Part shown: piece by piece, positions 44 through 26,494 of the stretch | Numbering within the stretch: the first letter of the stretch is position 1 | How the letters are laid out: each line of letters begins with the position of its first letter | NCBI RefSeq assembly: GCF_000404225.1 | Contig: NC_021353.1 | Span: forward strand, 808,371-840,370 | Direction of reading: 5' to 3' | DNA: 32,000 nt | Source: Candidatus Methanomassiliicoccus intestinalis Issoire-Mx1 | Lineage (GTDB): Archaea > Thermoplasmatota > Thermoplasmata > Methanomassiliicoccales > Methanomassiliicoccaceae | Made by a program: the position numbers and the translations under genes | Notes under the pieces: generated by a model | What the model was told of the DNA's origin: nothing | The model's input: only the letters and a program-made list of their open reading frames with translations | Databases searched by the model: none

Positions 44-436
44 TTACCACGGTTTCTGTCCCGTGGTCTGTAATATCTGATTATACTCTTCTGTGATGTT
101 ATATGCGTCATATATCTGCCACACCCAGAAGATCAGGAACACTACTATAAATGGTAAAAGCATAATGGTTGCAAATGATACAATAATTCCAATGATGAAG
201 TATAGCAGTCCCTTTCCAATCTGACCTGCGTAGATAACTCCTGCGCCTGGTATTATAAAAGACAGTATTGCTGCAATACCAGAACTTTTGAGCGGAAGTA
301 TATACTGCGGCGGAACTCCTGCTTGGTATGCACTCTGCGGAGTGCTTTCTATTCTTGCACCACAATTTTTGCAATAGCTTGAACCGTTTTCAATGTCGTT
401 TCCGCATTTTGGGCAAAACATAATCTTCAATTGCAT
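44..436 (-). CDS. zinc-ribbon membrane protein (N-terminal CxxC..CxxC ribbon plus two hydrophobic helices)
   Basis: 130-aa ORF. CPKCG...CKNCG motif at the N-terminus; hydrophobic IIPGAGVIYAG...LLPFIVVFLIFWVW segments; TAA stop. Paralogous C-terminal half to the next gene. Confidence 0.6.
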   Translation of the reverse strand: MQLKIMFCPKCGNDIENGSSYCKNCGARIESTPQSAYQAGVPPQYILPLKSSGIAAILSFIIPGAGVIYAGQIGKGLLYFIIGIIVSFATIMLLPFIVVFLIFWVWQIYDAYNITEEYNQILQTTGQKPW

Positions 437-7194: not shown

Positions 7195-8135
7195 ATCGAC
7201 TCCTTTACAAGATCTAAATATGACGTTTCAAGACTGTTTTCAGAACTGGAAAAACTGTATACATATATATTTAAAGCTCCTATCTCACTGAGAAGCTGCG
7301 CCTGTTCACCCAGCCCGCCTTTCAAAATTATTTCAACGTCATTTTTCCCTGCATACTCTACATCTGTCACATTGCTCAAATTTTTTATTTTTTCTAGAAT
7401 ATCTGCATTTGGCTCATCTATAAGTTTAATCTCTATTTTCCGCGTTCCTTTCGTCCCGATTACATTTGAGAGATCATCGTTAACAATGAGTTTTCCACGG
7501 CTGACCATCGCAACTCTATCGCACAAATCGTTTACTTCATGAAGCATGTGCGAACTCATCAAAATAGTGAGACTCTCTTTTTTTCTCAGCTCTTTTAGGA
7601 TCTCTCTGATCTCAGCCATTCCTCTTGGATCTAGGCCGGATGTAGGCTCATCGAGAATGATAATACTTGGACTATTGATTAATGATTGTCCCAAGGCTAC
7701 TCTTTGCCTCATTCCCTTTGAAAATGTTCCAAGTTTTTTATCGGCCCATTCACTCATCTTTATCTTTTCAAGAATCTCATCCGTTTCTGTAGCTATGCTC
7801 TCGTTGGACATTCCAAGAATCTTACCAATATATCTGAATGTTTCGCGCGGAGTCAAATACGTGTAGAATTCTGGTGTTTCAACAACTGTTCCAACGTTCT
7901 TCAAGGCATTTTTTGGATGAAGTTCAACATCATATCCATCCAGATAAACTGATCCAGATGTGGCTCTGGTGAGATTGGATAATATCTTTAATGTAGTGCT
8001 TTTTCCTGCGCCATTTGGCCCAAGCATGCCGGTAAAGCTGTTCTTCTTTACAGAAAAGGTAAGATCATCAACTGCTACGAATTTTCCATATGTCTTGGTT
8101 AATTTTTCAATGACAATTGGGTCTTCATGCGTCAC
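7191..8135 (-). CDS. ABC transporter ATP-binding protein
   Basis: 314 aa. Walker [10 protein letters not shown], signature FSKGMRQRV, Walker B IIILDEPTSGLD, H-loop SSHML. GTG start overlaps (GTGA) the stop of the upstream gene. Confidence 0.93.
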   Translation of the reverse strand: MTHEDPIVIEKLTKTYGKFVAVDDLTFSVKKNSFTGMLGPNGAGKSTTLKILSNLTRATSGSVYLDGYDVELHPKNALKNVGTVVETPEFYTYLTPRETFRYIGKILGMSNESIATETDEILEKIKMSEWADKKLGTFSKGMRQRVALGQSLINSPSIIILDEPTSGLDPRGMAEIREILKELRKKESLTILMSSHMLHEVNDLCDRVAMVSRGKLIVNDDLSNVIGTKGTRKIEIKLIDEPNADILEKIKNLSNVTDVEYAGKNDVEIILKGGLGEQAQLLSEIGALNIYVYSFSSSENSLETSYLDLVKESI

Positions 8136-9220
8136 AAGCTCACCTCGGCAGATTCAAAACTGAATGTTATTGACGTAGGGTATGGATCCACGCGCCATTC
8201 ATACTTATATAAAGATACATTCCCTTCAATCGTCATCTTTTTAAGGGTATCTCCATCATCGTCATATTTTGAGCTTATTTTATACTCTATAGTATGCATA
8301 TCAAGGTCTTTATCGATATATGAGTAATTTACAGAATACTCATATTGAAAATCGGCAAGTCTATCATCGACCGTTTCATAATGTTTTGAATTGCCTAAAT
8401 GATCACCTTCTATGCATGGTACATACATAATCAGGCATGTTTCATCAGTGTTGGAATTATTATCTAACGTCAGTGTGATCTCTTTGTACATACCATATGA
8501 ATTGAGATACGCATTCGTTAAAAATTTAGTATTTGATATAGTTTTTATAGATATAGTTTCAGAATAGTATTTATTCGTAGCATCCTGGGAATCACTCATG
8601 TATATCTTTTCGTTTCCACTCATCTGAATATTTTGTATCTCTCCTATTTCCCCAATTTCATATTTTCCTTCGGTGACTGATGCTCTGTCTAAGTCTGCTG
8701 TTATTGATATGTCAGCAATAGTCTGTTTAGAATCAATTTGTGCTAGGCTATGGATCTGGCAGTCAATTCTATAAATTAAAGGTGCATCTATCCCGATATA
8801 GTATGTATAAACTTGTTCAGTTAACGGGCTGACATACTCATAAACATTGCATCTAAAATTTTTATCTTCTACACTGACATTTTCCACTCCTTTGTATCCT
8901 GATCCATCTGGAGTTAAGTTTCCAGCATCAAGCCACATAAACTCATTTTGTTTATGTGTATAGATATCGATGTCTTTAGAAAAAGCAGATTGAAGAGTAA
9001 ATATGGAATATATTTTTTCATCAGATATAAATAGTAAAGACTGATATGCATATCCACTATCTATTTTATATGTCTGGCCATTGTCCGTATCCTTAATTTC
9101 ACCTGAAACTTTAAAAATCATATCTGCACTAGTATCTGATTGCCCATTTGGTATGATCTGCATTTCTGATTCCAGCGTGTTATGGTATGCAGAAAGACCA
9201 GCAATAATTACAATCAGCAA
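8132..9220 (-). CDS. exported or membrane-anchored protein of unknown function, first gene of the ABC-2 operon (5' end uncertain, may reach about 9276)
   Basis: 362-aa ORF from a TTG. The same frame stays open upstream and encodes ...NEKVKKAKNKIISLIVAVVLLIVIIAGLSAY, a typical signal anchor, with no in-frame ATG/GTG/TTG. The rest is Asn/Tyr/Ser/Asp-rich and I recognise no motif. Confidence 0.6.
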   Translation of the reverse strand: MLIVIIAGLSAYHNTLESEMQIIPNGQSDTSADMIFKVSGEIKDTDNGQTYKIDSGYAYQSLLFISDEKIYSIFTLQSAFSKDIDIYTHKQNEFMWLDAGNLTPDGSGYKGVENVSVEDKNFRCNVYEYVSPLTEQVYTYYIGIDAPLIYRIDCQIHSLAQIDSKQTIADISITADLDRASVTEGKYEIGEIGEIQNIQMSGNEKIYMSDSQDATNKYYSETISIKTISNTKFLTNAYLNSYGMYKEITLTLDNNSNTDETCLIMYVPCIEGDHLGNSKHYETVDDRLADFQYEYSVNYSYIDKDLDMHTIEYKISSKYDDDGDTLKKMTIEGNVSLYKYEWRVDPYPTSITFSFESAEVSL

Positions 9221-14242: not shown

Positions 14243-16186
14243 ATGAACTGGACTATGGATCTCAAGACATTTATCAAGAAGAATCTATTGTTTGTAGCGA
14301 TCATCATATTTGTAACTTTATTCATGTATGTTTTTGGATCTGAAAATGTACTGATCGGTGTAATGATGATCACCGCAGCTTTGATGATGCTTTCCAAAAA
14401 TCTAACTGGAAAGCCTTTTAAAAGCCTTGCTGGACTGATCGGGATAAATGTCACTCTGGGAGTAGGGTCGTTTTTAGCATATCTCAACCCCTGGCTTGGT
14501 CTTGTAACGAATTTTACAGTTGTTTTCATTGTAACTTTTGTTTTGATGCACGACATAAAGTCACCGGTACAATTTCCATTCTTACTGGGGTACGCTTTTA
14601 TCCTGGCATTTCCGGTGCCTGTCGAGGAATTTCCGCTTCGTCTTTTATCCCTGATAGTTGGATCAATTTTTATTGTAGTGCTCAACGTAGTTGTCAATCG
14701 CAACAGGCTTGCAATGAGTTGCCATGCGGGCATCTCAGGTCTGTTCTCTGAGATAAAATCACTCTTAGAAAAATTCCTCAACGGCGAAGAAGTTAATTCA
14801 AACACTCTTATCGAAAAAGCTAAACTTGTAAACTCTGCTGTTTATGACCGTCTGGAAGAAAAATATTATACATCCCCAGGGAGCAGATCGGCAATTAATC
14901 TTGCAATCTCTGCAGAAGAACTTGGAAAAGCTGTCATAGATGGAGATGATGAAGAACAAGATCTTAGAGACCTACTTCCTGTATTAGATGACCTCATCAG
15001 TTATCAAGAATTGAAAATTCCGCTTGAGCAGGTCCATAACAGCATAATGCAGTATTTAGATAATCACAGGTCTGCGGACTACGAAGTCCTATCAAGCCTG
15101 AGGATTATCGATTATGAGCTGGATATTCTTGTCAAGTCTGATAAAGAATCATTGATTAAATATACTGATTCTGAACAAATTCCTAAAAGCTTCAGAATGA
15201 AGACATTATTTAAGGAGAATTTTAGAAGAGATTCTCTAAAGTTCAGTTTTGCTTTCCGTGTAGCGTTACTGCTGGCACTATGGGAGTTTATAGGTGACTA
15301 CTATAACCTTGAAAATGCTAAATGGCTGGCATTTACTACAGTAGCTGTAGTACAGCCATATCTTGAAGCGACAGCTAGTAAATCACTAATGAGAGTAAAG
15401 GGAACGTTGGTGGGAGTGGCAATATTTACGGTATTAGCATACTTCATCTTGATAGAGAACCCATCGCTTACACCAGCAGTACTGATGATCATATCATATC
15501 TATACAGTATCCTTGATCCAAAGAGGTACGATGTGATGATGGTCTTCATAACCCTGATGGCTTTAATGACTGCATCAATGGTATTCCCTACAGAAACGTC
15601 AATCATAGAACGTCTTGTATATATCTTGCTGGGCATCGGTGCAGCTATGGTGGGAAGCCGTATTATTTTCCCATACAGGCTTAAAGATGAAAATATTGAA
15701 CTGTCTGGAAGATACATTTCAATCAGCAAAAGCCAGATTAGAGAATTGAGAAATGTGGCATCTGGCACAGTTGATGATGTGAAGAGCGCTGCACTCACAC
15801 TCACAGCCCACACAATCGCTGAGAAAATCAAGGTCAATAATGATCAAGATAATGACGATCTTGTAGACAGGTTGATGACAAAACAGACTGAAGTAACGAA
15901 TCAATGTTCCATTCTCCGGCAGATACTGATATCTACTCCAGATGATGGAAGTGTTAAGGATACTAAAAAAATGGTCGTGAAGGTCATCGATACATTCGGC
16001 TCTAATGGAAAAGAATCAATTCCAAAAGATATCTCTCCTTTCTTAGATGGTTTGACTACGCATGGAAGTGAATATATGAAGATGGTATTGAATGTGCTCA
16101 GGCTTCAGCGTGAAAGTGAAAATATGTTCATCGAGCTAACTTCACACAATGAAGACACACCTACAATAAATGCTGTGGCAGCTTAA
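14243..16186 (+). CDS. FUSC/ArAE-family (YccS/YhfK-like) integral membrane protein
   Basis: Two hydrophobic blocks separated and followed by long helical soluble regions. The second block, FAFRVALLLALWEFIG...TTVAVVQPYLEATASKSLMRVKGTLVGV, matches the FUSC core pattern. Start is ambiguous: TTG 14234, ATG 14243 or ATG 14255. Confidence 0.75.
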   Translation: MNWTMDLKTFIKKNLLFVAIIIFVTLFMYVFGSENVLIGVMMITAALMMLSKNLTGKPFKSLAGLIGINVTLGVGSFLAYLNPWLGLVTNFTVVFIVTFVLMHDIKSPVQFPFLLGYAFILAFPVPVEEFPLRLLSLIVGSIFIVVLNVVVNRNRLAMSCHAGISGLFSEIKSLLEKFLNGEEVNSNTLIEKAKLVNSAVYDRLEEKYYTSPGSRSAINLAISAEELGKAVIDGDDEEQDLRDLLPVLDDLISYQELKIPLEQVHNSIMQYLDNHRSADYEVLSSLRIIDYELDILVKSDKESLIKYTDSEQIPKSFRMKTLFKENFRRDSLKFSFAFRVALLLALWEFIGDYYNLENAKWLAFTTVAVVQPYLEATASKSLMRVKGTLVGVAIFTVLAYFILIENPSLTPAVLMIISYLYSILDPKRYDVMMVFITLMALMTASMVFPTETSIIERLVYILLGIGAAMVGSRIIFPYRLKDENIELSGRYISISKSQIRELRNVASGTVDDVKSAALTLTAHTIAEKIKVNNDQDNDDLVDRLMTKQTEVTNQCSILRQILISTPDDGSVKDTKKMVVKVIDTFGSNGKESIPKDISPFLDGLTTHGSEYMKMVLNVLRLQRESENMFIELTSHNEDTPTINAVAA

Positions 16187-16241
16187 GCTGCGCAGCTTCT
16201 TATTTTTATATCCAAAAAATTTTATTAAGTCTTCTTTTATC

Positions 16242-17006
16242 ATGCATTATATGCTGCTTGATTCTCTTGAATCTGTGATAAAAAAAATCCCATCACCGCA
16301 AGCTGTGATGTTTTCAGGGGGTTTAGATTGTGGAGTTCTTTCTGCACTCTCTAAAAAATACTTCACGCCAAAATTATACACAGTAGGAATAGAAAACTCA
16401 CATGATCTTATCGCTGGAGAACAGGGGGCTCAGGAAATCGGACTTCCATGGACTGGAATAGTCATTACGGATGAGCTTATTCTTGAAGAATGCTGTAAAG
16501 TTCTGAAGATTGTCGATCTTTCTCCATTAGAACTCTCTTATGAACTGCCGCTTCAGATATTGGCTTCAAGAATTGATGAAGAAAATTTGATAAGCGGCCA
16601 GGGAGCAGACGAACTTTTTGGAGGTTACAACCGTTACTCAGAAATGTCAATCAGTGAAGCTGAATCATCATCTAAGAACGATTATGAGCGGCTTTTTACA
16701 AACATCATGCTCAAGGAGGATCTGATTGCTTCAGCATACTGCAAAACGTTGTGGAGACCATTCTTAAATGAGCGAGTAGCCGAGGTAGCTCTGTCCATTC
16801 CTATGTCTGATAAGATATCGGGAGGAGTAAATAAGATCCCTCTTAGAATTTTGGCTGAGGAGCTTGGGTTAAAAACTATCGCTTCAAGAAAGAAAAAGGC
16901 GGCACAATATGGTTCAGGAATCATGAAATCTTTAAAATCCTGCTCCAAAAAGAACAATCAAACATTGGATGAGTATATCTCTTCGTTAAAAAAAGAGAAT
17001 ATTTGA
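16242..17006 (+). CDS. asparagine synthetase-like PP-loop ATP pyrophosphatase, synthetase domain only
   Basis: PP-loop variant MFSGGLDCG and the AsnB C-domain signature GQGADELFGGYNRY. No N-terminal Ntn glutaminase domain. The track ORF (16170) overlaps the FUSC gene; the ATG at 16242 lies about 35 nt after TTTTATA (16204-16210). Confidence 0.75.
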   Translation: MHYMLLDSLESVIKKIPSPQAVMFSGGLDCGVLSALSKKYFTPKLYTVGIENSHDLIAGEQGAQEIGLPWTGIVITDELILEECCKVLKIVDLSPLELSYELPLQILASRIDEENLISGQGADELFGGYNRYSEMSISEAESSSKNDYERLFTNIMLKEDLIASAYCKTLWRPFLNERVAEVALSIPMSDKISGGVNKIPLRILAEELGLKTIASRKKKAAQYGSGIMKSLKSCSKKNNQTLDEYISSLKKENI

Positions 17007-17043
17007 TCGCAACATAATTATGCAAAATACGAAATAGGCTTTT

Positions 17044-18315
17044 GTGGACCGCAGAGAAGTTCTCGAATGGCTTTTTGCACAGGAAGCCTCAGGCATAAAG
17101 TTTGGGTTAGAAAACACTAAAGAACTTTTGAAACGCATGGGTAACCCTCATGAAAAGTTTAAATCGGTTCATATTGCCGGAACCAATGGCAAAGGCTCAG
17201 TAAGTGCAATGACTGAATCTGTTTTACGTGAATCTGGATATATTACAGGGCTTTATACGTCTCCTCATCTGGTAGATTTCAGCGAAAGAATACGCGTGTG
17301 TGGGAAAAAAATTTCAGACAGTGAGTTTCTTGAGTTGGCTAAAGATGTCAAATATCATGCTGATAAAATGTTGAGTGAATCTAAAAAATTGACATTTTTT
17401 GAACTTACTACTGCAATTGCCTTTGCGCACTTTGCTAGATGTGGGGTAGAGATTGCAGTAATTGAAGTTGGGATGGGTGGTAGATTGGACTCTACAAACG
17501 TCATCTCGCCAGAAGTTTGTGCAATTACACCTATTAGTATGGAACATGCAGAGTTTCTAGGAGACACACTTGCTAAAATTGCTGCAGAGAAGGCAGGAAT
17601 AATCAAACCAGGAATTCCCGTAGTATGTTCTAAACAGCCTGATGATGTTATAAAAGTCATAAGATCTAAAACGGACATGCTCATAGTGGCAGGAGAGAAC
17701 TCAAAATTCGAGATAATATCTTCTGACTCTAATGGGACTGAGATATTTTCTGACGCCGTGGGGATGAACCTTTCAGTACCACTTATTGGGTCTTATCAGG
17801 GGGATAATTGTGCTTTAGCAGTTATCATGCTAAGAGAACTGATGAATCGCGGATTTTACATCCCAGATGAAGCTTTTCTCCGAGGTCTCCAGAACACCAA
17901 ATGGCCAGGCAGATTGGAGACTGTTTCTTTTAATCCCAGGATCATAATTGATTGCACTCATACTCCTGCTGGAGCTGAAGTCGTAGCATCTGAAGTGAAA
18001 AGAATATTTGGTAACGTTATTTTGATCTTTGGAATTCTTAAGGATAAGGATGTAAAGGCCGTAGCAGAGAAGTTTGGGGCAATTTCTGAGAAGGCTTTCA
18101 TAGTCACGCCTGATTCGAAAAGAGCCCTCTCTGCAGAACAGGCTTCTAAATATTTTGAACCATATACAAAAGTACAGATCTGCCCTTCTTTGAAATGCGC
18201 CATATCAGCTGCAAAAGAAAATGCAGGCTCTAACGGAACTATATTGATAACTGGATCATTGTATATGGCAGGTGAAGCTATGGAGGTGCTCAATGTCTCA
18301 GAAAGTATCTTGTGA
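17044..18315 (+). CDS. folC: folylpolyglutamate synthase / dihydrofolate synthase (Mur ligase family)
   Basis: 423 aa. GIKFGLENT...HIAGTNGKGS P-loop and Mur-ligase middle and C-terminal pattern. GTG start. Confidence 0.9.
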   Translation: MDRREVLEWLFAQEASGIKFGLENTKELLKRMGNPHEKFKSVHIAGTNGKGSVSAMTESVLRESGYITGLYTSPHLVDFSERIRVCGKKISDSEFLELAKDVKYHADKMLSESKKLTFFELTTAIAFAHFARCGVEIAVIEVGMGGRLDSTNVISPEVCAITPISMEHAEFLGDTLAKIAAEKAGIIKPGIPVVCSKQPDDVIKVIRSKTDMLIVAGENSKFEIISSDSNGTEIFSDAVGMNLSVPLIGSYQGDNCALAVIMLRELMNRGFYIPDEAFLRGLQNTKWPGRLETVSFNPRIIIDCTHTPAGAEVVASEVKRIFGNVILIFGILKDKDVKAVAEKFGAISEKAFIVTPDSKRALSAEQASKYFEPYTKVQICPSLKCAISAAKENAGSNGTILITGSLYMAGEAMEVLNVSESIL

Positions 18316-18949
18316 AGTTTTAGACCGTCTTACAAAACTATTCGAAGGAACGGAATCTCCAACGGCATTAGCTAAAACCCCTACTTGGAATGCTACACCA
18401 TTTACTGTTCTCATATCTACAGTACTGTCTCAGCGAAACCGGGATGAGATTACGTATGCTGCATCTGAAAGACTATTCAAGAAATATCCCACACCGGAAA
18501 CACTTGTGGATGCTGATCTTGATGATGTGAATGATATAATCAGCAACGTTAATTTCCATTTCAATAAAGCTAAGGCGATTAAAGAGATTTCTAGAATATT
18601 GTGTGAAGACTACAACAGCGAGGTTCCGAAAGATATCAATGAACTCGTAAAGCTTCCAATGGTAGGGAGGAAAACCGCCAATTGTCTTCTTGGATATGCA
18701 TATAGAATAGATTCAATCTGTGTTGACACTCATGTCCATAGAATCTCTAACAGGATTGGAATTGTAGATTCTAAGACACCTGAAGAAACTGAAATGCAGC
18801 TTCAGACTGCTGTACCTAGAGATCGATGGCTGGAAATTAACGATCTATTTGTGAGATTTGGGCAGGAAATCTGCACTCCTCAAAGACCTAAACATCAAAT
18901 ATGTCCTTTGAAAGATCTGTGCAGAGAATTTAGAAACGAATCTGAGTGA
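18293..18949 (+). CDS. nth: endonuclease III (HhH-GPD DNA glycosylase/AP lyase)
   Basis: HhH-GPD LPMVGRKTANCLL, VDTHVHRISNRIG, C-terminal Fe-S loop CTPQRPKHQICPLKDLC. Start taken as MSQKV (18293), overlapping the folC end; the track start is 18272. Confidence 0.92.
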   Translation: MSQKVSCEVLDRLTKLFEGTESPTALAKTPTWNATPFTVLISTVLSQRNRDEITYAASERLFKKYPTPETLVDADLDDVNDIISNVNFHFNKAKAIKEISRILCEDYNSEVPKDINELVKLPMVGRKTANCLLGYAYRIDSICVDTHVHRISNRIGIVDSKTPEETEMQLQTAVPRDRWLEINDLFVRFGQEICTPQRPKHQICPLKDLCREFRNESE

Positions 18950-18955
18950 GATCTT

Positions 18956-21900
18956 ATGGGTATAGATATTAGAGTTACAGATATTGGTGAATATATAACT
19001 CAGAATAGTTGTGCTATAAAATTTAAGCTCCGTGCTGACAAGACATCCACAGAGGCTAATTTTCCGTACTATCACCTTGTAAGAAGTCCTATAAACCCAA
19101 TATTAGTTGAAGCTGGAAGATCCGCAGAAGAAAAAGTTTCAGATATTTTAAAAAATAAATATAATATTGAATTTCTTGGTTGCACAAGTAAATCTCGAGG
19201 AGTAGAATATACAGATTGGGATTCTTTCATAGATTATCTGGAAAATGCTAGAGAATCTAAAGACGTTTTCATGAGAGAAGTTGAAATATGTTCTGATGAG
19301 GGAGCGTTTACATTACACGGTCAAATGGATTTTGTTATTTTGAGATGGATTTCTGGTAATCCAGTTATACGAATTTTGGAGTGTAAATCCAGTAGGAAAG
19401 ACAAGACTTATCATAGAATCCAGCTTGCTTCATATGTATTGATGATCAAACAGAAATTTGCAGAAGGAGTTGTAATTGGCGGAGTTAAAAGGGATGTCGT
19501 GATTGAATGCGCAGTTGTAAGGGTAGAAGGACATGCTGGAGTTCAAGATCCTTTTGAAGTTCCGTCTTTGAACCTTGAAAATGAAATGCTTGATCTGAGG
19601 GAGTTAGTTGATATAAATGGCCCTCTCTATGCAGCATATATCTCAGATTACAGTCATATTGATTACCATTTAGGATCTAAATGTAGTATGTGCACTCATT
19701 CTGCGATCTGTGCTGCAGAGAACATAAGAAAAAGGAAAATAGAGTTGCTTGGTCTTTCTATCTCGGAAAACAGAGCACTAAAGCAGTCAGATATACACAC
19801 CCTCGATGACATCATGAGCATGCCTCTGGAAAAATCCGAAGAACTCCGAATGTGCCCAGCTTTTAAAAGTAGTATTTCAAGACTAAAGCTGGATGCAGAG
19901 ACAAAAATGGCCGGTTTACTGGATGGATATGGTTATCCAGTTCAGGCGTACAACAATGGAGAGATCTCCACACTTCCAGATCATGTTCAAGGAGAAAGCA
20001 GACTTATTTGTATATATCTTGATGTAGAATGGGATCCGGTAGAAGATAGACTTCTAGGTGTAGCAGCTCACATAACAGATTCTGAAAAATACATTTATTT
20101 TGAAAAAGGAAAAAATGCTAGTCCAGATTTAATGGAGTGCGACCAATCTAGAAACAATATCAGCAGAATGAATGCAAAAGAAGTATCAGTTATAATGGAA
20201 TCTGCATGGACTGACTCTTCAGACAAAAACGATCTGAAAGAAAGAGAGCTATTGGAGAATTTTTTCTTGAGTATTTCAAACATACTCTCGGATATTGGAA
20301 ATGGAACTGAAAGAGCACTTCACTTCTATGTCTGGTCCGAATCTGATATGAGACATTTCATAGACGGATGTAAAAGAGCCGGCGGTGATGTTTTGGGGAA
20401 TCTAGTTGAACTGCTTGGTTGCAGGGCAGAATGCACGCACAATCTTGAGCAGGTCATATATTCTTCCATATACAATGAGATAAAACGAAAAATATCAATT
20501 GGGAAAATTTCTCAATCATTAGCATCTGTAACTTCACTTGGTTGGTTTGGATGGTATTTTCACTGGAATAGACAAGTCGGAAACGAAATAATTAATTTCA
20601 GGCGTTCTTTTAGACAGGATATTTTTGATCTCATAGCTAAGTTAGATGAGAAGGATGGAAAGCTGTATTCTTCTGATAACGGAAAATATTATGAAGTCAG
20701 AATTATGGCAGATTCATTGATATCTCTACCATATTGGCATATGATGTGGGATCCAGAATCTGTCTGGAAAATCAGTGACAGCAGGGCCTATACTGCGATG
20801 ACTGAATACCGGAATGCAGGAAAATCAGACTATATTAATGGATTCATGAAGGCTAAATGTCAGGCACTAAGATGGCTAGACGAACGACTCATGCCTAAAG
20901 AAACGCAGTCTGGAAAACGACAGCCTACATTCATCATCAGCAAGCCCCCCATCAATTTAAATGAATTAACCTGTTTAAAAGAAGAATTCAAATCAAGATA
21001 CTCCATAAAACAGGCATGTTTGGATTTTCTTAAACTGGATCACAGTATGAAAGAATCCGAATGGCTATCAAATAATGCTAGACCTACATTTTCAAGGGTC
21101 ATGGATGGTTCATGTATTCCTCTAAAAAATATAAGTTTTTCACAAAATAATAATAAAATAATAATGCATGCCCAATTAGATCTCAAGACATACGGTATCG
21201 ACAATGAAAAATTTTTTGAGGTATGTGAATTTGAAGAATCCAGTTTTGTTAGAATTATTCCATATTCTGGAAGTACTGATTCTGTTGATTATTCTTTAAG
21301 AAAAGGGGTAACCGCAATAATTAATAAAATTGATTTTATTGTTGGAGATTTGGAAGCTTTAATATTCCCTGGCAGATCATCTAATTATATAATGAGTTCT
21401 AGAACATCTGATTTTGATGACTGTAATCTTGGGATTGTAGTATCAAGTATTTCAGACTTCACTAATGAGAAAGTCTCTAAAAGAATAGCTTCATCATCAT
21501 CGCCTGTTTTTGAATGGTTTAATCCCTTATCTCCAAAAGTCCCTCCAAAACTTCCGATACTAGCAGATGATAAATTACGATATGATCATATATTGTATGA
21601 ATCTAGTAACGGAAAACTTAACACTTGCCAAAGAACTGCATGTATTGAGGGTTTGGAGTGCAGAGTGCAGTTGCTATTTGGTCCTCCTGGAACAGGAAAA
21701 ACGAATACCATGGCTTATGCGACACTTCTTCGTTTGATGAAAAGTGGAGAGCACTCTATATTTTTAATTTCTGCAAATACACATACTGCAATAAATGAGC
21801 TCATATCTAGAATTAATACAATTATTGATAAATTTGTAAAAACATCAAATATGCACAATGAATACTTTTCTAAGCCTGCATTTGTGAGACTTAGTGATAC

Positions 21901-22936
21901 GCCTGGAGAGGGAACAATCGATCCTAGAAATATTGCAGCAGCAAAGGATTTCATTGCTAGTGGCAGAACGGTATTTTGTGGAACTGTGGGGCAGATAATA
22001 AAACTTTCAGATGCTATGGTTGATGAGGGATTTTTAGTAGATTCATTAATTATTGATGAAGCTAGCATGATGATCTTTCCTCATTTCTTATCATTGGCTT
22101 CCACTCTTGATATCAATGGTGATATAATGCTTGCAGGTGATATTTTGCAATTATCTCCAATTACCTCTTATGACTGGAATAATGAGCAAAGGGAACAAAT
22201 TGAGATCTTGAAGCCATATCAGAGTGCATATGCTGCCATCAGAGGTCTCTGCCCACAATCTGGCGATTCTTTAAATTATGTGGCAAATCAATCACCCCTC
22301 ACAGTTACGTATAGGATGAATGAAGAATGTACTGATTTAATATCTGAAATATATGATGCAGAAGGTATTAATTTAATATCCGCTTCAACATCGAAATGTT
22401 ATAAATCGGCTATTAATTCCTTTTCTGATCTCTGGGATGGAACGGGGGTTTATTTGATAGTTCACGATGAACACGAATCAAAGAAATACAATCCTTATGA
22501 GGTATCAATTATTCAGGATATCTTAAGATATAAAGATGAAAAAGAAGACGCGGCTGTGATTACACCGCACAGAGCGCAGAAAAGTGCATTGAAGAGATCT
22601 CTTGGAGATGTAATTCCAATTGACACTGTGGAACGGTTTCAAGGAGGGCAGTGTAGTACTATAATTGTATCTGGAACGCAGAGCGATGCTACTGAAATTA
22701 GTGGAAATGCAGAGTTTATATTAGATCTCAATCGTACGAATGTTATTTTTTCCAGAGCCAAGAACCGTTTGATCGTTGTATGTTCAAAGAATCTATTAAA
22801 CAGCGTACCTTCTGAAGCTGAGGAATATGAGAATTCTATACTTTGGAAAAAGTTAAGATCCTTCTGCAGCACAACAGTATTTAAATGTGAGTATAAAGGG
22901 CACTGTGTAGAAGTGAGAATACCGCCGTTAGTTTAA
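18956..22936 (+). CDS. multidomain nuclease-helicase: Cas4/RecB/Dna2-type Fe-S PD-(D/E)xK nuclease, HhH, RNase H-like exonuclease-fold domain and Dna2/Upf1-type SF1B helicase
   Basis: 1326 aa. Nuclease: C19, D125 (19328), ExK ILECK (19379-19387), QLASY, CX2CX5C (19682-19711). RNase H-like: YLDVEWDP (D at 20021), HFYVWSESDMRHF. Helicase: GPPGTGKT (21680-21703), IIDEAS (22049-22066), VERFQGGQ (22628-22651), FSRAKNRLIVV. Confidence 0.85.
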   Translation: MGIDIRVTDIGEYITQNSCAIKFKLRADKTSTEANFPYYHLVRSPINPILVEAGRSAEEKVSDILKNKYNIEFLGCTSKSRGVEYTDWDSFIDYLENARESKDVFMREVEICSDEGAFTLHGQMDFVILRWISGNPVIRILECKSSRKDKTYHRIQLASYVLMIKQKFAEGVVIGGVKRDVVIECAVVRVEGHAGVQDPFEVPSLNLENEMLDLRELVDINGPLYAAYISDYSHIDYHLGSKCSMCTHSAICAAENIRKRKIELLGLSISENRALKQSDIHTLDDIMSMPLEKSEELRMCPAFKSSISRLKLDAETKMAGLLDGYGYPVQAYNNGEISTLPDHVQGESRLICIYLDVEWDPVEDRLLGVAAHITDSEKYIYFEKGKNASPDLMECDQSRNNISRMNAKEVSVIMESAWTDSSDKNDLKERELLENFFLSISNILSDIGNGTERALHFYVWSESDMRHFIDGCKRAGGDVLGNLVELLGCRAECTHNLEQVIYSSIYNEIKRKISIGKISQSLASVTSLGWFGWYFHWNRQVGNEIINFRRSFRQDIFDLIAKLDEKDGKLYSSDNGKYYEVRIMADSLISLPYWHMMWDPESVWKISDSRAYTAMTEYRNAGKSDYINGFMKAKCQALRWLDERLMPKETQSGKRQPTFIISKPPINLNELTCLKEEFKSRYSIKQACLDFLKLDHSMKESEWLSNNARPTFSRVMDGSCIPLKNISFSQNNNKIIMHAQLDLKTYGIDNEKFFEVCEFEESSFVRIIPYSGSTDSVDYSLRKGVTAIINKIDFIVGDLEALIFPGRSSNYIMSSRTSDFDDCNLGIVVSSISDFTNEKVSKRIASSSSPVFEWFNPLSPKVPPKLPILADDKLRYDHILYESSNGKLNTCQRTACIEGLECRVQLLFGPPGTGKTNTMAYATLLRLMKSGEHSIFLISANTHTAINELISRINTIIDKFVKTSNMHNEYFSKPAFVRLSDTPGEGTIDPRNIAAAKDFIASGRTVFCGTVGQIIKLSDAMVDEGFLVDSLIIDEASMMIFPHFLSLASTLDINGDIMLAGDILQLSPITSYDWNNEQREQIEILKPYQSAYAAIRGLCPQSGDSLNYVANQSPLTVTYRMNEECTDLISEIYDAEGINLISASTSKCYKSAINSFSDLWDGTGVYLIVHDEHESKKYNPYEVSIIQDILRYKDEKEDAAVITPHRAQKSALKRSLGDVIPIDTVERFQGGQCSTIIVSGTQSDATEISGNAEFILDLNRTNVIFSRAKNRLIVVCSKNLLNSVPSEAEEYENSILWKKLRSFCSTTVFKCEYKGHCVEVRIPPLV

Positions 22937-22964
22937 AGTGAGAGTTCGGCAATTATTATGTTTA

Positions 22965-23237
22965 ATGCATATAGTATTCTATATACTGATAATCTATCTC
23001 ATCTTGAATCTCGTATCCCTGTTAATGTACAGGTCTGATAAAGATAAAGCAATAAATAATCAATATAGAACATCTGAGAGTACCTTGCTTTTAGCGGCTC
23101 TGATCGGGCCGTTTGGTGCTTACGCAGGTATGAGAAGATATCACCATAAAACAAGGAAGCTGAAATTTAAATTGGTTTTTGTTTTCATGGCTTTACATAT
23201 AATAATCGCGGCTCTTGTCATTTTTGAATTTATGTAA
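22965..23237 (+). CDS. DUF1294-like small membrane protein
   Basis: The pattern ...YRSDKDKA...RTSESTLLLAALIGPFGAYAGMRRYHHKTRKLKF matches my recollection of the DUF1294 core (DK.kA...R.pE..L...a..GG..Ga...HKT.K). Start is ATG 22965 or GTG 22938, 2 nt after the helicase stop. Confidence 0.7.
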   Translation: MHIVFYILIIYLILNLVSLLMYRSDKDKAINNQYRTSESTLLLAALIGPFGAYAGMRRYHHKTRKLKFKLVFVFMALHIIIAALVIFEFM

Positions 23238-23277
23238 TGGGCTCTGTTATAACTCAATACTTGTGGAGAGAAAACAT

Positions 23278-25062
23278 ATGGATGAAGATTTATTGAAAAA
23301 ATACTGGGCCGTAGTAAAAACCGAGCTTGAGACATTTAAGCCGGGGCCTAATGAAGATTGCAATTACTATCCATGTCATTTTAAGGGACAGGATTGTGCA
23401 TATTGTTATTGCCCATTTTATCCTTGCATGGATCAACGACTGGGAAAGATGGTGCATAAAGAAGGCGACGATGAAGAAGTGTGGAGTTGTCAGGACTGTT
23501 ATTGGACGCACAGAAGCGATGTGGCTAAACTCATCTCTGAAAATTTTCCATTTTCAGAAGAACCACCTGCTGACGAGATCAGAGCTGAAATAAAAAAGAA
23601 AATTGAGGAAAAATGTCCAGTGTCTGCAAAACCACTAATGATTCTTGGGACTACTTCAGGGGCTGGTAAATCAATAATTGCTAGTGCATTCTGCCGTGTG
23701 TTCTCTGACATGGGATACAACGTTGCCCCATTCAAATCTCAGAATATGTCGCTAAATTCTATGGCAATATCAGATGGAGAAATCGCCAGGGCGCAGTATC
23801 TGCAGGCTATCGCGGCCAGGACAGATCCAGAAGTAAGCATGAATCCGATTCTGCTTAAGCCACAAGGCGATGATGTTTCTCAAGTTGTTGTAAATGGCTC
23901 TGTTTACAAAAATATGCCAGTTTCTGAATATTATGAAAATTTCACAGTAAATGAAGGTATAAATATAGTGACAAATGCCTGGGAATATTTGAGGAGAACC
24001 AGAGACATTGTAGTTATTGAAGGTGCAGGCTCTCCAGCTGAAATAAACCTTTCAGAATGTGAACTGTCTAATATGAAAGCAGCTGAAATTGCTAATGCTC
24101 CATGTATCCTTGTTGTAAATATGATACGGGGAGGGGCATTTGCGTATGCATATGGAACAATCACTCTACTATCACCTGCACATAGAAAGCATATCAAAGG
24201 AATAATCTTCAACAATATGTATGGATCTGCAGATTGTCTGGATTCTGGAATCAAAAAACTGGAATCAATGCTAGGCATCCCGGTTTTAGGTGTGATTCCT
24301 CATATTGAACATGCTCTTCCAGAAGAAGATTCACAAGATCTCAAATCTTCAAAAGATGGAAATGATATAGCGATAGTTCATCTTCCCAGGATCTCAAATT
24401 TTACTGACTTTGATGCTTTGTCTTTAAGCGGCGTGTCAGTAAAGTTTGTCAGGCAACCCAATGAACTTCGCACTGCAAGGGCTATTGTAATCCCAGGTAC
24501 TAAAAACACATTTGCAGACATGGCCTGGATGAAAGAAAATGGCTTCTTTGAGACTCTTAAAGAACTACGCGGTAAAGTACCGATTCTAGGAATCTGCGGC
24601 GGATACCAGATTCTTGGTAAAAGCATCTATGACACGGAAGGGATTGAAGGAGATGTCAAAGCTGCGGAAGGCCTTGGATTTTTAGATGTTTCTACTGTGT
24701 TTGATACAACTGACAAAAAGACAGTTCAGGTATGCGGATGTCTTGAAAACGGTGAAGAAATAAGAGGATATGAAATTCACATGGGTAAGACCGAAAGCCA
24801 TGAGAAGCCGCTCATAACATTGGATGATGGGAGCCCAGAGGGTTCAATTTCTCCTGATGGGATGGTAATAGGAACATATCTTCATGGCATATTTGATCTG
24901 CCACCATTTAGGGATTATTTTTTGGAAAAAAGCAGCATAACGAGCAGTGAAGAGGTCGACTATGATGCTGAAGTTGATAAAGACCTTGATCTGATGGCAG
25001 AAACGCTCAGGAGCAATATAGACATGAAAGTCATCATGAAGATTATGGAGGATGGGGTATGA
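23278..25062 (+). CDS. cobQ: cobyric acid synthase CobQ with an N-terminal cysteine-rich small domain
   Basis: GGAG 10 nt upstream of the ATG at 23278. About 90-aa Cys-rich N-domain, then the CobQ ATPase domain (GTTSGAGKS, PFKSQNMSLNS, MNPILLKP) and a GATase1 domain (GICGGYQILG, YLHGIFD). Confidence 0.92.
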   Translation: MDEDLLKKYWAVVKTELETFKPGPNEDCNYYPCHFKGQDCAYCYCPFYPCMDQRLGKMVHKEGDDEEVWSCQDCYWTHRSDVAKLISENFPFSEEPPADEIRAEIKKKIEEKCPVSAKPLMILGTTSGAGKSIIASAFCRVFSDMGYNVAPFKSQNMSLNSMAISDGEIARAQYLQAIAARTDPEVSMNPILLKPQGDDVSQVVVNGSVYKNMPVSEYYENFTVNEGINIVTNAWEYLRRTRDIVVIEGAGSPAEINLSECELSNMKAAEIANAPCILVVNMIRGGAFAYAYGTITLLSPAHRKHIKGIIFNNMYGSADCLDSGIKKLESMLGIPVLGVIPHIEHALPEEDSQDLKSSKDGNDIAIVHLPRISNFTDFDALSLSGVSVKFVRQPNELRTARAIVIPGTKNTFADMAWMKENGFFETLKELRGKVPILGICGGYQILGKSIYDTEGIEGDVKAAEGLGFLDVSTVFDTTDKKTVQVCGCLENGEEIRGYEIHMGKTESHEKPLITLDDGSPEGSISPDGMVIGTYLHGIFDLPPFRDYFLEKSSITSSEEVDYDAEVDKDLDLMAETLRSNIDMKVIMKIMEDGV

Positions 25063-25874
25063 CTAGTATCATGGTTCAGGCTACATCTTCAGGTGCTGGG
25101 AAAACGACACTAGTGGCTATACTCTGTAAGCATTTTACATCGAAGGGCATCAATACGGTGCCTTTCAAAGCCCAGAATATATCATTAAATTCATTTGCAA
25201 CTCAATCTGGGGGAGAAATAGGAATGTCTCAGGCATATCAGGCATGGGCGTGTAACAAAGAGCCGCAAACAGACATGAACCCCGTTCTGATTAAACCGCA
25301 TGGTCCTGGACAATCTCAGACCATTCTGGGAGGAAAACCTTTCAACGGCACTCGGGATGAGATTGACAAATACATTGCAGATGCATATCTTAGATCAGAG
25401 TTGGATAATGATCTTGTAATCATTGAAGGGTCTGGTTCTCCCGTAGAAATCAATCTTATCGACAGGTCTAACATGGCAGTTGCAGATATGGCTGATGCAC
25501 CTGTCATTTTAGTAGGGGATATTGAGTATGGTGGAGTTTTTGCTGGACTTTATGGAACATATTCTCTTATGAGTGAAAAACATCGTCAGAGAGTTAAGGC
25601 ATTCGTAATCAATAGATTCAGGGGAGATATGAGTTTATTAATCCCGGGTATCGATAAACTTGAAAAAATGATTGGTGTTCCCTGTGCAGGGGTGCTGCCT
25701 CATGCAAATCTCCTATTTCCTTCAGAGGATTCATTGGATTTCATATCTGGCAGGGGAACAGAAGCAGAAGGAACAGATATCCGAGAAGCTTGGATGGAGA
25801 ATTTAGAAAGGATATATGCTATCTCTCAGAAATATCTGAATTACAGTCTGATTGAATCTTTTATTGATGAGTAA
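25059..25874 (+). CDS. CobQ-like ATPase-domain-only paralog (no glutamine amidotransferase domain)
   Basis: 271 aa, ATGA overlap with cobQ. ATSSGAGKTT, PFKAQNISLNS, MNPVLIKP and IIEGSGSPVEINL align by eye with the N-terminal half of the upstream CobQ. It ends before any GATase motif. Confidence 0.8.
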   Translation: MTSIMVQATSSGAGKTTLVAILCKHFTSKGINTVPFKAQNISLNSFATQSGGEIGMSQAYQAWACNKEPQTDMNPVLIKPHGPGQSQTILGGKPFNGTRDEIDKYIADAYLRSELDNDLVIIEGSGSPVEINLIDRSNMAVADMADAPVILVGDIEYGGVFAGLYGTYSLMSEKHRQRVKAFVINRFRGDMSLLIPGIDKLEKMIGVPCAGVLPHANLLFPSEDSLDFISGRGTEAEGTDIREAWMENLERIYAISQKYLNYSLIESFIDE

Positions 25875-25876
25875 AG

Positions 25877-26494
25877 TCAGAGATATCTGACTTTACCATT
25901 TTTTTCTGCTGGACTTAACTCAAGTGATACCCATAAACCAAGCGCTTTTCCAAGGTCATGCAAATAGTTTCCTGCAGCCATTGCATTTCTCTCAATTACT
26001 GCAGCATATCTATTCATTATATCGATTGTAGGAATGTACTCATCCTTTCTCATGATTTTATCAATCTGGAAATATCTGGATCTGCCATCTAATGATGAGT
26101 AATCTTCTTTCAGAAATTCCGGTTCTTCTGTAATTACAGCCTTTGAAAATCCAAGGTTTACAGATGCAGACTCTATTGTTCTTATTTCTTCTAATATCTG
26201 TCCCAATCCTCTTCTACCATTCAAAGAATTATTATGAAAATCTACCACTCTTACATCGGGATGATCTGCTTTCGCAGTTTTCTCGCATTCTCTTACCATG
26301 TGGAGAAGCTTTCCCATTTCATCGAACATGGTGAGCATAATTGAGAATGCCATTCTATCTCTCCCAGGGAATTTATCTGCTTCTGCCAGTGCATGATATG
26401 AATTGGCATTTTCTAGTATGTGATCTGCAAGTGCAGCTGTTGTAAAAAATGCTTCGTCCCTGACAATATAGACTACATCCGGGTTACTGCTCAT
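25877..26494 (-). CDS. hypothetical protein (205 aa, soluble, no motif recognised)
   Basis: Long ORF with an ATG start and balanced composition. Convergent with the cobQ pair (2-nt spacer between stops) and divergent from the ABC operon. Confidence 0.6.
   Translation of the reverse strand: MSSNPDVVYIVRDEAFFTTAALADHILENANSYHALAEADKFPGRDRMAFSIMLTMFDEMGKLLHMVRECEKTAKADHPDVRVVDFHNNSLNGRRGLGQILEEIRTIESASVNLGFSKAVITEEPEFLKEDYSSLDGRSRYFQIDKIMRKDEYIPTIDIMNRYAAVIERNAMAAGNYLHDLGKALGLWVSLELSPAEKNGKVRYL

Follow-up and report, generated by a model that had tools for sequence, protein, structure and literature searches.

What is the role of a 1326-residue protein, joining a nuclease to a helicase, whose gene is packed between nth, encoding endonuclease III, and a small DUF1294 gene in an archaeal genome? 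The question is raised by an open reading frame (ORF) within a 32,000-nt stretch of DNA (the window, meaning the whole stretch analysed) from Candidatus Methanomassiliicoccus intestinalis Issoire-Mx1, which covers positions 808,371-840,370 of contig NC_021353.1 on the forward strand. An earlier note, made from the letters alone, had read the protein as a fusion of a Cas4/Dna2-type iron-sulfur (Fe-S) nuclease, an RNase H-like domain and a superfamily 1B (SF1B) helicase whose gene is coupled to nth, and had favoured housekeeping repair over immunity as its role. Our analysis indicates that the window protein is a single-chain helicase-nuclease on the plan of the bacterial enzyme Bad and of the TM0106-helicase fusions. 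From the gene contexts of its family, the most likely role of these proteins is that of the destructive arm of a restriction-modification (RM)-like defence, and for the window copy, too, a restriction-like function is more probable than one devoted to working with nth.

A search of 5.8 billion proteins found 179 homologues of the window protein with E-values down to 0, and nearly all of the 120 homologues listed span 97-100% of its length. Every motif quoted in the earlier note lies where it had been placed (Table 1). In an alignment of 46 sequences, D125, E142, K144, Q156, C243, C246, C252 and all helicase motifs are invariant, and C19 (45/46) and Y160 (44/46) are nearly so. With near full-length homologues and conserved motifs, the ORF is not a chance one.

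Table 1. Positions in the window of the helicase-nuclease gene, its modules and motifs, and the two adjoining genes
Feature	Positions	Strand	Residues	Details or basis
Endonuclease III (nth)	18272-18949	+		HhH-GPD and EndIII Fe-S domains; stop 6 nt before the ATG
Whole ORF: nuclease, RNase H-like domain, SF1B helicase	18956-22936	+	1326 aa	ATG start
Predicted iron-staple (4-Cys) PD-(D/E)XK nuclease	18956-19720	+	1-255	PDDEXK_1, Foldseek, conserved residues
C19	19010-19012	+	19	inside NSCAIK (19004-19021)
D125, inside GQMDFV	19319-19336	+		
ILECK	19373-19387	+		
QLASY	19421-19435	+		
CX2CX5C	19682-19711	+		
HhH-like linker and long helix	19721-19942	+	256-329	AF2 model
Putative diverged RNase H-fold (YprB/RNase_H_2-like) domain	19943-20515	+	330-520	AF2, Foldseek lists, hhalign
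YLDVEWDPVED	20015-20047	+		
HFYVWSESD	20321-20347	+		
Family-specific alpha/beta and long-helix extension	20516-21115	+	521-720	AF2 model
Beta-barrel and stalk accessory region preceding the motor	21116-21595	+	721-880	AF2 model
SF1B (Upf1/Dna2-like) helicase core and C-terminal tail	21596-22933	+	881-1326	Pfam, PDB matches
GPPGTGKT	21680-21703	+		
IIDEAS	22049-22066	+		
VERFQGGQ	22628-22651	+		
SRAKNRLIVV	22751-22780	+		
DUF1294 small protein	22938-23237	+		PF06961; GTG start 2 nt past the stop

The N-terminal domain scores 28.1 bits with Pfam PDDEXK_1 (cut-off 22), and Cas4 models match it weakly. An AlphaFold2 (AF2) model of residues 1-880 (predicted local distance difference test score (pLDDT) 85, predicted template modelling score (pTM) 0.83) matched Cas4 SSO0001 (4ic1), human EXO5 (7lw9) and AddB in Foldseek. 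The key residues of this type of nuclease are C19, D125, E142-x-K144, Q156..Y160 and C243-x2-C246-x5-C252. Since the Asp, ExK, QxxxY and four-Cys features are all present, the sequence identifies the domain as an iron-staple nuclease of the Cas4/AddB/Dna2 type with a predicted Fe-S cluster, in agreement with the earlier call.

The helicase call was likewise confirmed. The core (residues 881-1290) contains Walker A GPPGTGKT at 909-916, DEAS at 1034-1037 and QGG at 1229-1231, is matched by the Pfam models AAA_11, AAA_12, AAA_19 and AAA_30, and finds IGHMBP2, Dna2, Upf1 and Sen1 among PDB sequences. Together with the invariant motif set (Walker A, DExx, motif III and motifs V/VI), these matches describe a complete SF1B helicase, for which we infer a 5'-3' polarity from family membership. 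Ahead of the core, the AF2 strands of the barrel region lie at residues 721-830. Foldseek also matched the model of residues 1-880 to Sen1/SETX; this model ends before the RecA domains, and the matches probably fall on the barrel/stalk region. Between the nuclease and the central domain, the modelled helix-hairpin-helix (HhH)-like linker consists of four short helices followed by a helix at residues 307-320, and Pfam reports a weak RNA_pol_A_CTD match there.

For the central domain, Pfam RNase_H_2 (PF13482) gave no match to the window protein at E<=1 or to 30 family members at E<=0.01, neither an RNase H family nor any other Pfam family was recognised in the domain among the 30, and a profile of the domain found no match among PDB sequences. 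We modelled residues 300-720 separately (pLDDT 84). The AF2 secondary-structure order is b1-b2-b3-aA-b4-aB (pLDDT ~84-85). Foldseek with this model returned nothing significant (best E 0.09 in PDB and 0.005 in BFVD), which counts against assigning a fold. The PDB and BFVD lists consisted almost wholly of RNase H-like proteins, each match below significance, among them NurA, polymerase exonuclease domains, EndoV, Argonaute PIWI, RNase H and DnaQ-like exonucleases. Two giant-virus proteins, one labelled 'RNase_H superfamily' and the other YprB-like, gave the longest alignments.

A further line of evidence came from the TM0106-helicase fusions, which NCBI names 'TM0106 family RecB-like putative nuclease' (more than 4266 matches) and which carry Pfam RNase_H_2 at the position matching the central domain. 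When the helicase was removed from both sides, hhalign aligned the N-terminal halves of the two families with a probability of 95.4% and an E-value of 1.9e-8, from nuclease through linker to RNase H motifs (residues 16-501 here, 18-411 of TM0106-helicase). In this register, residues 356/358 face the invariant D-x-E of the TM0106-helicase proteins, 425..429 their D-xxx-E, and H456-x-Y-x-W...D/E464 their H-x-Y-H-Y...E. The central domain alone aligned in the same register without reaching significance (E ~0.1), a second point against the assignment. Thus, three independent lines, each weak alone, agree: the modelled secondary structure, the Foldseek lists and the TM0106-helicase profile alignment together support residues ~330-520 as a diverged RNase H fold of the YprB/RNase_H_2 type. 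To this extent the RNase H part of the earlier reading stands, although neither a Pfam family nor a significant structural match came with it.

The motifs of this domain are D356-V-E358, D360, E363, N425..E429 and H456-F-Y-V-W-S-x-x-D464. The DxE pair pointed out earlier holds on one side: position 358 is E or D in 41/46 sequences, whereas D356, the ExoI Asp, is limited to this clade and its closest Methanomassiliicoccales relatives and is replaced by S, A or N in most other family members. The other conserved acidic residues are D/E464 (46/46), D360, E363, E508, D558 and E580; Y618 is conserved as well, and the ExoIII Asp is absent across the whole family. E/D358, D360, E363 and D/E464 are suitable targets for mutation. 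The extension that follows (residues 521-720) was confined to this protein family in the HMMER search and contains the residues W530, W537, R539, F557, D558, E580, R639, W640 and K663, invariant in the same alignment. A degenerate YprB/RNase H-like fold is thus proposed for the central domain of this family; for the central domain of Bad-type helicase-nucleases, structure and function had been termed 'completely unknown' (PMC7430649).

Among 1.84 billion representatives, an exhaustive HMMER search with the central-domain profile retrieved no more than 378 clusters (E<=1e-3). The listed matches, short fragment-like sequences aside, are ~1250-1600 aa long, and the same layout was found in all but two of 20 family members checked. 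The family occurs in Methanomassiliicoccales, Cyanobacteria, Actinobacteria, Bacteroidota, Armatimonadota and Myxococcota, and also on haloarchaeal plasmids. No family member was found in 2.9 million viral contigs, and tblastn against phages gave a partial helicase match only. In a full-length profile-profile comparison, the family and the TM0106-helicase fusions were colinear over 1058 columns (probability 99.95%, E 2e-38). With TIGR03491, the window protein reaches 16.7 bits, well short of the cut-off of 97.45; 28/30 members match this model (best E 8e-10) at model positions ~88-290 only, and this sub-threshold similarity is carried by the linker region. The failed cut-off and the clear profile homology therefore place the family as a sister of TM0106 and not within it. 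On this sequence evidence, the family is a rare, horizontally dispersed accessory lineage, sister to the TM0106-helicase family.

We surveyed the neighbours at 66 dereplicated loci from genomes, plasmids and metagenomes, with the neighbouring proteins clustered; a scan of genome contigs keyed on the Walker A motif had returned mostly generic SF1B helicases and ~8 useful loci. A C5 cytosine methyltransferase (PF00145) clearly outnumbers every other type of neighbour; it lies at most three genes away in 22/66 loci and is directly adjacent in 18 of them. Among the adjacent genes, 13 are on the same strand as the family gene, with gaps of -28 to 123 nt and frequent overlap. A SacI-type restriction endonuclease is present in five loci. 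Further neighbours related to defence or mobility include integrases, a transposase, DUF262, AbiEii and a giant HNH protein, as well as a NACHT-protease, a DUF6079/BrxC-like ATPase and an MZB (DUF1998) helicase. Since the usual partner is a C5 methyltransferase and the usual setting a defence island or mobile element, these data point to a restriction-like role of the family.

Several loci show individual features. A metagenomic member of 2104 aa (L161:3785-10099) has a UvrD-like helicase fused at its N-terminus and stands downstream of a 1256-aa MZB (DUF1998) helicase resembling DISARM/MrfA. On a Salinirubellus plasmid (NZ_CP104004, L175:834-9524), a three-gene module adjoining an integrase encodes an RNase H-like protein, a DEAD/DEAH helicase and a 1543-aa 'bifunctional RecB family nuclease/DEAD/DEAH box helicase'; this large third protein is a distant relative of the window protein. 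In two unrelated loci (L007:5634-11279 and L142:10108-12837), the gene of a UvrD/AddA-like helicase, encoded on the other strand, comes directly downstream of the family gene, and L007 also holds a large PDDEXK_1 protein that is AddB-like in appearance.

At the locus in question, the spacing was as described before, with nth ending 6 nt upstream of the fusion gene and the DUF1294 gene starting 2 nt downstream of it (GTG at 22938). In the product of the window nth, the Lys and Asp that endonuclease III uses in catalysis are both retained. The Fe-S ligands read C-x6-H-x2-C-x5-C, with His replacing the second Cys, as they also do in the relative at 64% identity (L087). The array FUSC-AsnS-like-Mur ligase-nth-gene-DUF1294-CobQ-CbiA is kept in two relatives, at 80% and 64% protein identity (L001 and L087), and linkage of nth and DUF1294 to a family gene was seen in this clade only. 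Methanomassiliicoccales relatives at ~40% identity show three different contexts, none with nth. The AT-rich centre noticed earlier is real and modest, with a GC content of 0.316 at 20900-21500, whereas the gene as a whole has 0.362 and the window 0.385. This dip coincides with the barrel region and the poorly conserved end of the central extension, the barrel/stalk region (21116-21595) being the AT-richest part of the gene (GC 0.30, GC at third codon positions (GC3) 0.17). Among 21 window genes, the fusion gene has the lowest GC3 (0.279 vs a mean of 0.339, sd 0.030). Conserved synteny, a divergence within the range of its neighbours and a mild composition shift point to an old, stably inherited accessory gene, and a recent horizontal insertion was rejected in view of the synteny and the mildness of the shift. 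The adjacency to nth is a lineage-specific feature: in a clade without an adjacent methyltransferase, this copy became fixed between nth and DUF1294 in an array on one strand.

Glycosylase genes were found beside other family members as well. In L116 (1325-2059), an unrelated family member shares the first 53 nt of its gene with an Nth-like gene, whose product keeps the Lys. Mig-like HhH-GPD genes, with Tyr for Lys, directly follow the C5 methyltransferase gene in L119 (10086-10718) and L150 (11140-11769) and stand two genes from the family gene. These Mig-like glycosylases are most simply read as companions of C5 methylation that would repair the deamination of 5-methylcytosine. L116 and the window nth are suggestive, giving a hint of a glycosylase link. 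Because HhH-GPD glycosylases recur beside unrelated members, the adjacency to nth is not pure chance.

Several observations weigh against a restriction-like role. Some of the adjacent methyltransferases are accompanied by a SacI-like endonuclease and may represent a neighbouring ordinary Type II system. PADLOC-DB v2 contains no full-length match, only the helicase-core models MkoA, DpdJ and MkoC and a weak Cas4 match. At this locus, the conservation of the array at 80% and 64% identity looks housekeeping-like, the fusion gene diverges slightly faster than most of its neighbours and within their range, and a C5 methyltransferase domain was not found among the window ORFs scanned; indeed, C5 methyltransferases are found in 0/11 Methanomassiliicoccales-type loci vs 22/55 elsewhere (Fisher p=0.012). 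The conserved array, the evolutionary rate comparable to that of the neighbours and the lack of a methyltransferase in this clade also favour a housekeeping role of the kind put forward in the earlier note. Here, Nth would excise damaged pyrimidines and leave a nick, and a domesticated Dna2-like helicase-nuclease would load there or at the displaced flap for processing, as in long-patch base excision repair or end resection. In favour of this role are also the 6-nt spacing after a canonical Nth retaining Lys and Asp, the ExoI Asp D356, confined to this clade and its nearest archaeal relatives, the Nth-like overlap in L116 and the presence of Mig-like glycosylases two genes off in L119 and L150, and eukaryotic Dna2 is known to process long flaps. 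However, the synteny is gone in the ~40%-identity relatives, the family is too rare and patchy for core repair, most other members are in defence or mobile contexts or on plasmids, the Mig-like glycosylases are better explained by the C5 methyltransferases that they follow, and compact archaeal genomes often form tight same-strand arrays without a functional link. A patchy, island-type distribution is moreover the outcome that, by the earlier note's own criterion, would refute the housekeeping reading. Of its claim of a housekeeping gene coupled to nth, the synteny in close relatives and the recurrence of glycosylases stand, whereas the loss of the linkage at ~40% identity and the defence or mobile settings of the family go against it. 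We regard dedicated repair with Nth as possible but doubtful.

A different link to repair would make the family an accessory of C5 methylation acting on T:G mismatches or on repair intermediates that result when 5-methylcytosine is deaminated, as Vsr and Mig do beside Dcm, with the window copy as a remnant whose methyltransferase was lost. A C5 methyltransferase beside roughly one third of the family genes, the Mig-type glycosylases directly after the methyltransferase in L119 and L150, and the Dcm-Vsr pairs reported beside Cas4-helicase fusions (PMC5704561) are consistent with such a role. Yet two thirds of the loci have no C5 methyltransferase, the contexts are defence islands and plasmids, Bad-type relatives pair with N6-adenine Type III-like methyltransferases, for which deamination repair is irrelevant (PMC7430649), and a processive helicase-nuclease of 1300 aa is unlikely for very-short-patch repair; we therefore find this role improbable. 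Even less probable is plain orthology to eukaryotic Dna2, with the protein taking its part in archaeal Okazaki-fragment and fork processing. The nuclease-then-SF1B order and a PDB match to mouse Dna2 (E 5.6e-8) would fit it, but the match lies in the C-terminal part of the helicase and is limited to residues 1197-1285, IGHMBP2 scores better, Dna2 lacks the ~400-aa central RNase H-like domain (PMC7430649), and the distribution is sporadic instead of archaea-wide. With the similarity confined to the helicase tail, orthology to Dna2 was rejected, and neither 'Dna2' nor a plain 'AAA ATPase' is a fitting annotation. A more elaborate proposal joins both neighbourhoods: the family would form an unrecognised RM-like class of a Dna2/Bad-type enzyme and a C5 methyltransferase, in which the RNase H-like domain reads the state of the DNA, and a Methanomassiliicoccales derivative lacking the methyltransferase would be coupled to nth, using glycosylase/AP-lyase (apurinic/apyrimidinic lyase) nicks as entry sites for unwinding and degradation. 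We consider this proposal rather unlikely as a whole. For the window copy we prefer a defence-type nuclease-helicase that works without a partner and whose targets would be foreign or aberrant DNA, and give this reading an even chance.

By analogy with Bad and Dna2, such an enzyme would load on 5' single-stranded tails or flaps, its motor would translocate and unwind 5'-3' with ATP, and the nuclease, held ahead of the motor, would cut the tracked strand, while the RNase H-like module may provide a second nuclease activity or else sense nucleic acids. To our knowledge, no classical restriction enzyme uses an SF1B unwinding motor. The literature searched contained no validated defence system of a Cas4-like/SF1 helicase with a C5 methyltransferase. 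In their recurrent and often overlapping pairing, the helicase-nuclease and the C5 methyltransferase are a candidate two-gene restriction module which, if validated, would represent a mechanistically new form of restriction. The methyltransferase-free archaeal copy beside nth offers a natural comparison, which could show how a cell employs or restrains such an enzyme when there is no partner for modification.

The other genes around the locus were also annotated. Those flanking the triplet of nth, the fusion gene and DUF1294 (16170-18315 and 23215-25874) encode Asn-synthase-like, Mur-ligase-like, CobQ-type amidotransferase and CbiA-like ATPase proteins. The CobQ-type glutamine amidotransferase has an N-terminal Cys-rich zf-like domain, and its pairing with the Mur ligase, conserved in L001 and L087, is reminiscent of MurT/GatD. 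Two ORFs on the minus strand, of 362 aa (8132-9220) and 205 aa (25877-26494), have no Pfam match; the 205-aa ORF is present in L001 and L087 at 85-95% identity. No tRNA or Rfam features were found in the window.

Among known systems, the defence proteins Nhi, Hna, Hhe and Mokosh MkoA likewise combine a helicase and a nuclease in one polypeptide, and the window helicase core shows SF1-level similarity to MkoA, Hhe and ProA. These defence proteins differ in nuclease type and domain order, and membership in Nhi, Hna, Hhe or Mokosh was rejected, the similarity being restricted to the helicase core and far below the family cut-offs of PADLOC and NCBIfam. In eukaryotic Dna2, too, an Fe-S PD-(D/E)XK nuclease precedes an SF1B helicase and a barrel/stalk region separates the two, but Dna2 has no counterpart of the central domain, and the distribution of the window family is unlike that of a core replication factor.

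The suggestion in the earlier note that the architecture might be new was not borne out: the three-module plan is abundant among proteins named TM0106, and Bad and the 'Cas4-UvrD' fusions had already been described. The latter, a pfam12705 branch found in bacteria and mesophilic archaea, were reported in 2017 by Hudaiberdiev et al. in Type III RM or Dcm/Vsr contexts, though often they stand alone or have neighbours that are not conserved, and a defence function was predicted for them (PMC5704561). They resemble the window family in the fusion of a Cas4-like nuclease to an SF1 helicase and in their methyltransferase contexts. Different from the window family, which is clearly SF1B, their helicase was termed UvrD-like (3'-5'); the leaves of the published tree include the Methanoculleus and Methanospirillum species on which the definition of Bad later drew (PMC5704561).

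Bad of Geobacillus stearothermophilus is the closest characterised protein, a likeness drawn from the description of Bad (WP_053413574). It is a 1245-aa monomer with an Fe-S cluster, a 5'-3' helicase/translocase with a single-stranded DNA endonuclease ahead of the motor; in Geobacilli its neighbour is always a Type III-like methyltransferase, which led Wilkinson et al. (2020) to propose that Bad belongs to a novel restriction enzyme, and they noted relatives in Mycobacteria/Rhodococcus and Euryarchaeota (PMC7430649). Both are single chains of ~1250-1330 aa with an Fe-S nuclease, a central domain and an SF1B helicase (PMC7430649). In both, the nuclease has one N-terminal Cys and a C-terminal Cys cluster, the large conserved central domain has no detectable sequence homology, the distribution is sporadic in bacteria and Euryarchaeota, and a DNA methyltransferase is the neighbour in many genomes. 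They differ in the partner, a Type III Mod-like N6-adenine methyltransferase for Bad, a C5 methyltransferase for this family and none for its archaeal clade, and in the distance from the nuclease Asp to the Walker A Lys, 665 residues in Bad (D150, K815) vs 790 here (D125, K915). No Geobacillus or Methanoculleus protein appeared among the named matches, and no Geobacillus or Methanomicrobiales name among second-tier relatives or cluster look-ups.

The TM0106-helicase fusions occur on plasmids of Legionella, Acinetobacter and Piscirickettsia, where the proteins are ~1110-1150 aa long and combine a Cas4-like nuclease, RNase_H_2 (E 2e-25) and an SF1B helicase. Four plasmid loci with TM0106-nuclease/RNase_H_2/SF1B-helicase fusions were inspected (L091:3847-7236, L092:2766-6227, L093:2910-6245 and L094:2895-6230); their neighbours include WYL regulators (L093, L094), an SNF2-type helicase (L091) and a C5 methyltransferase (L094), and our literature search turned up no paper on these plasmid fusions. 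Compared with them, the window family has ~200 extra central residues, lacks the ExoIII Asp and mostly the ExoI Asp, is invisible to Pfam RNase_H_2 in all 30 members scanned, whereas the TM0106-helicase domain is detected by it, and is rare (378 clusters) where they are abundant (>4266 matches). Both share the module order of Fe-S nuclease, HhH linker, RNase H fold and SF1B helicase, the motifs [D/S]xE, DxxxE and HxYx(Y/W)xxxE in register, and plasmid or defence-like contexts, including WYL regulators and, in one case, a C5 methyltransferase. The family of the window protein is thereby now tied to the very large TM0106-helicase family.

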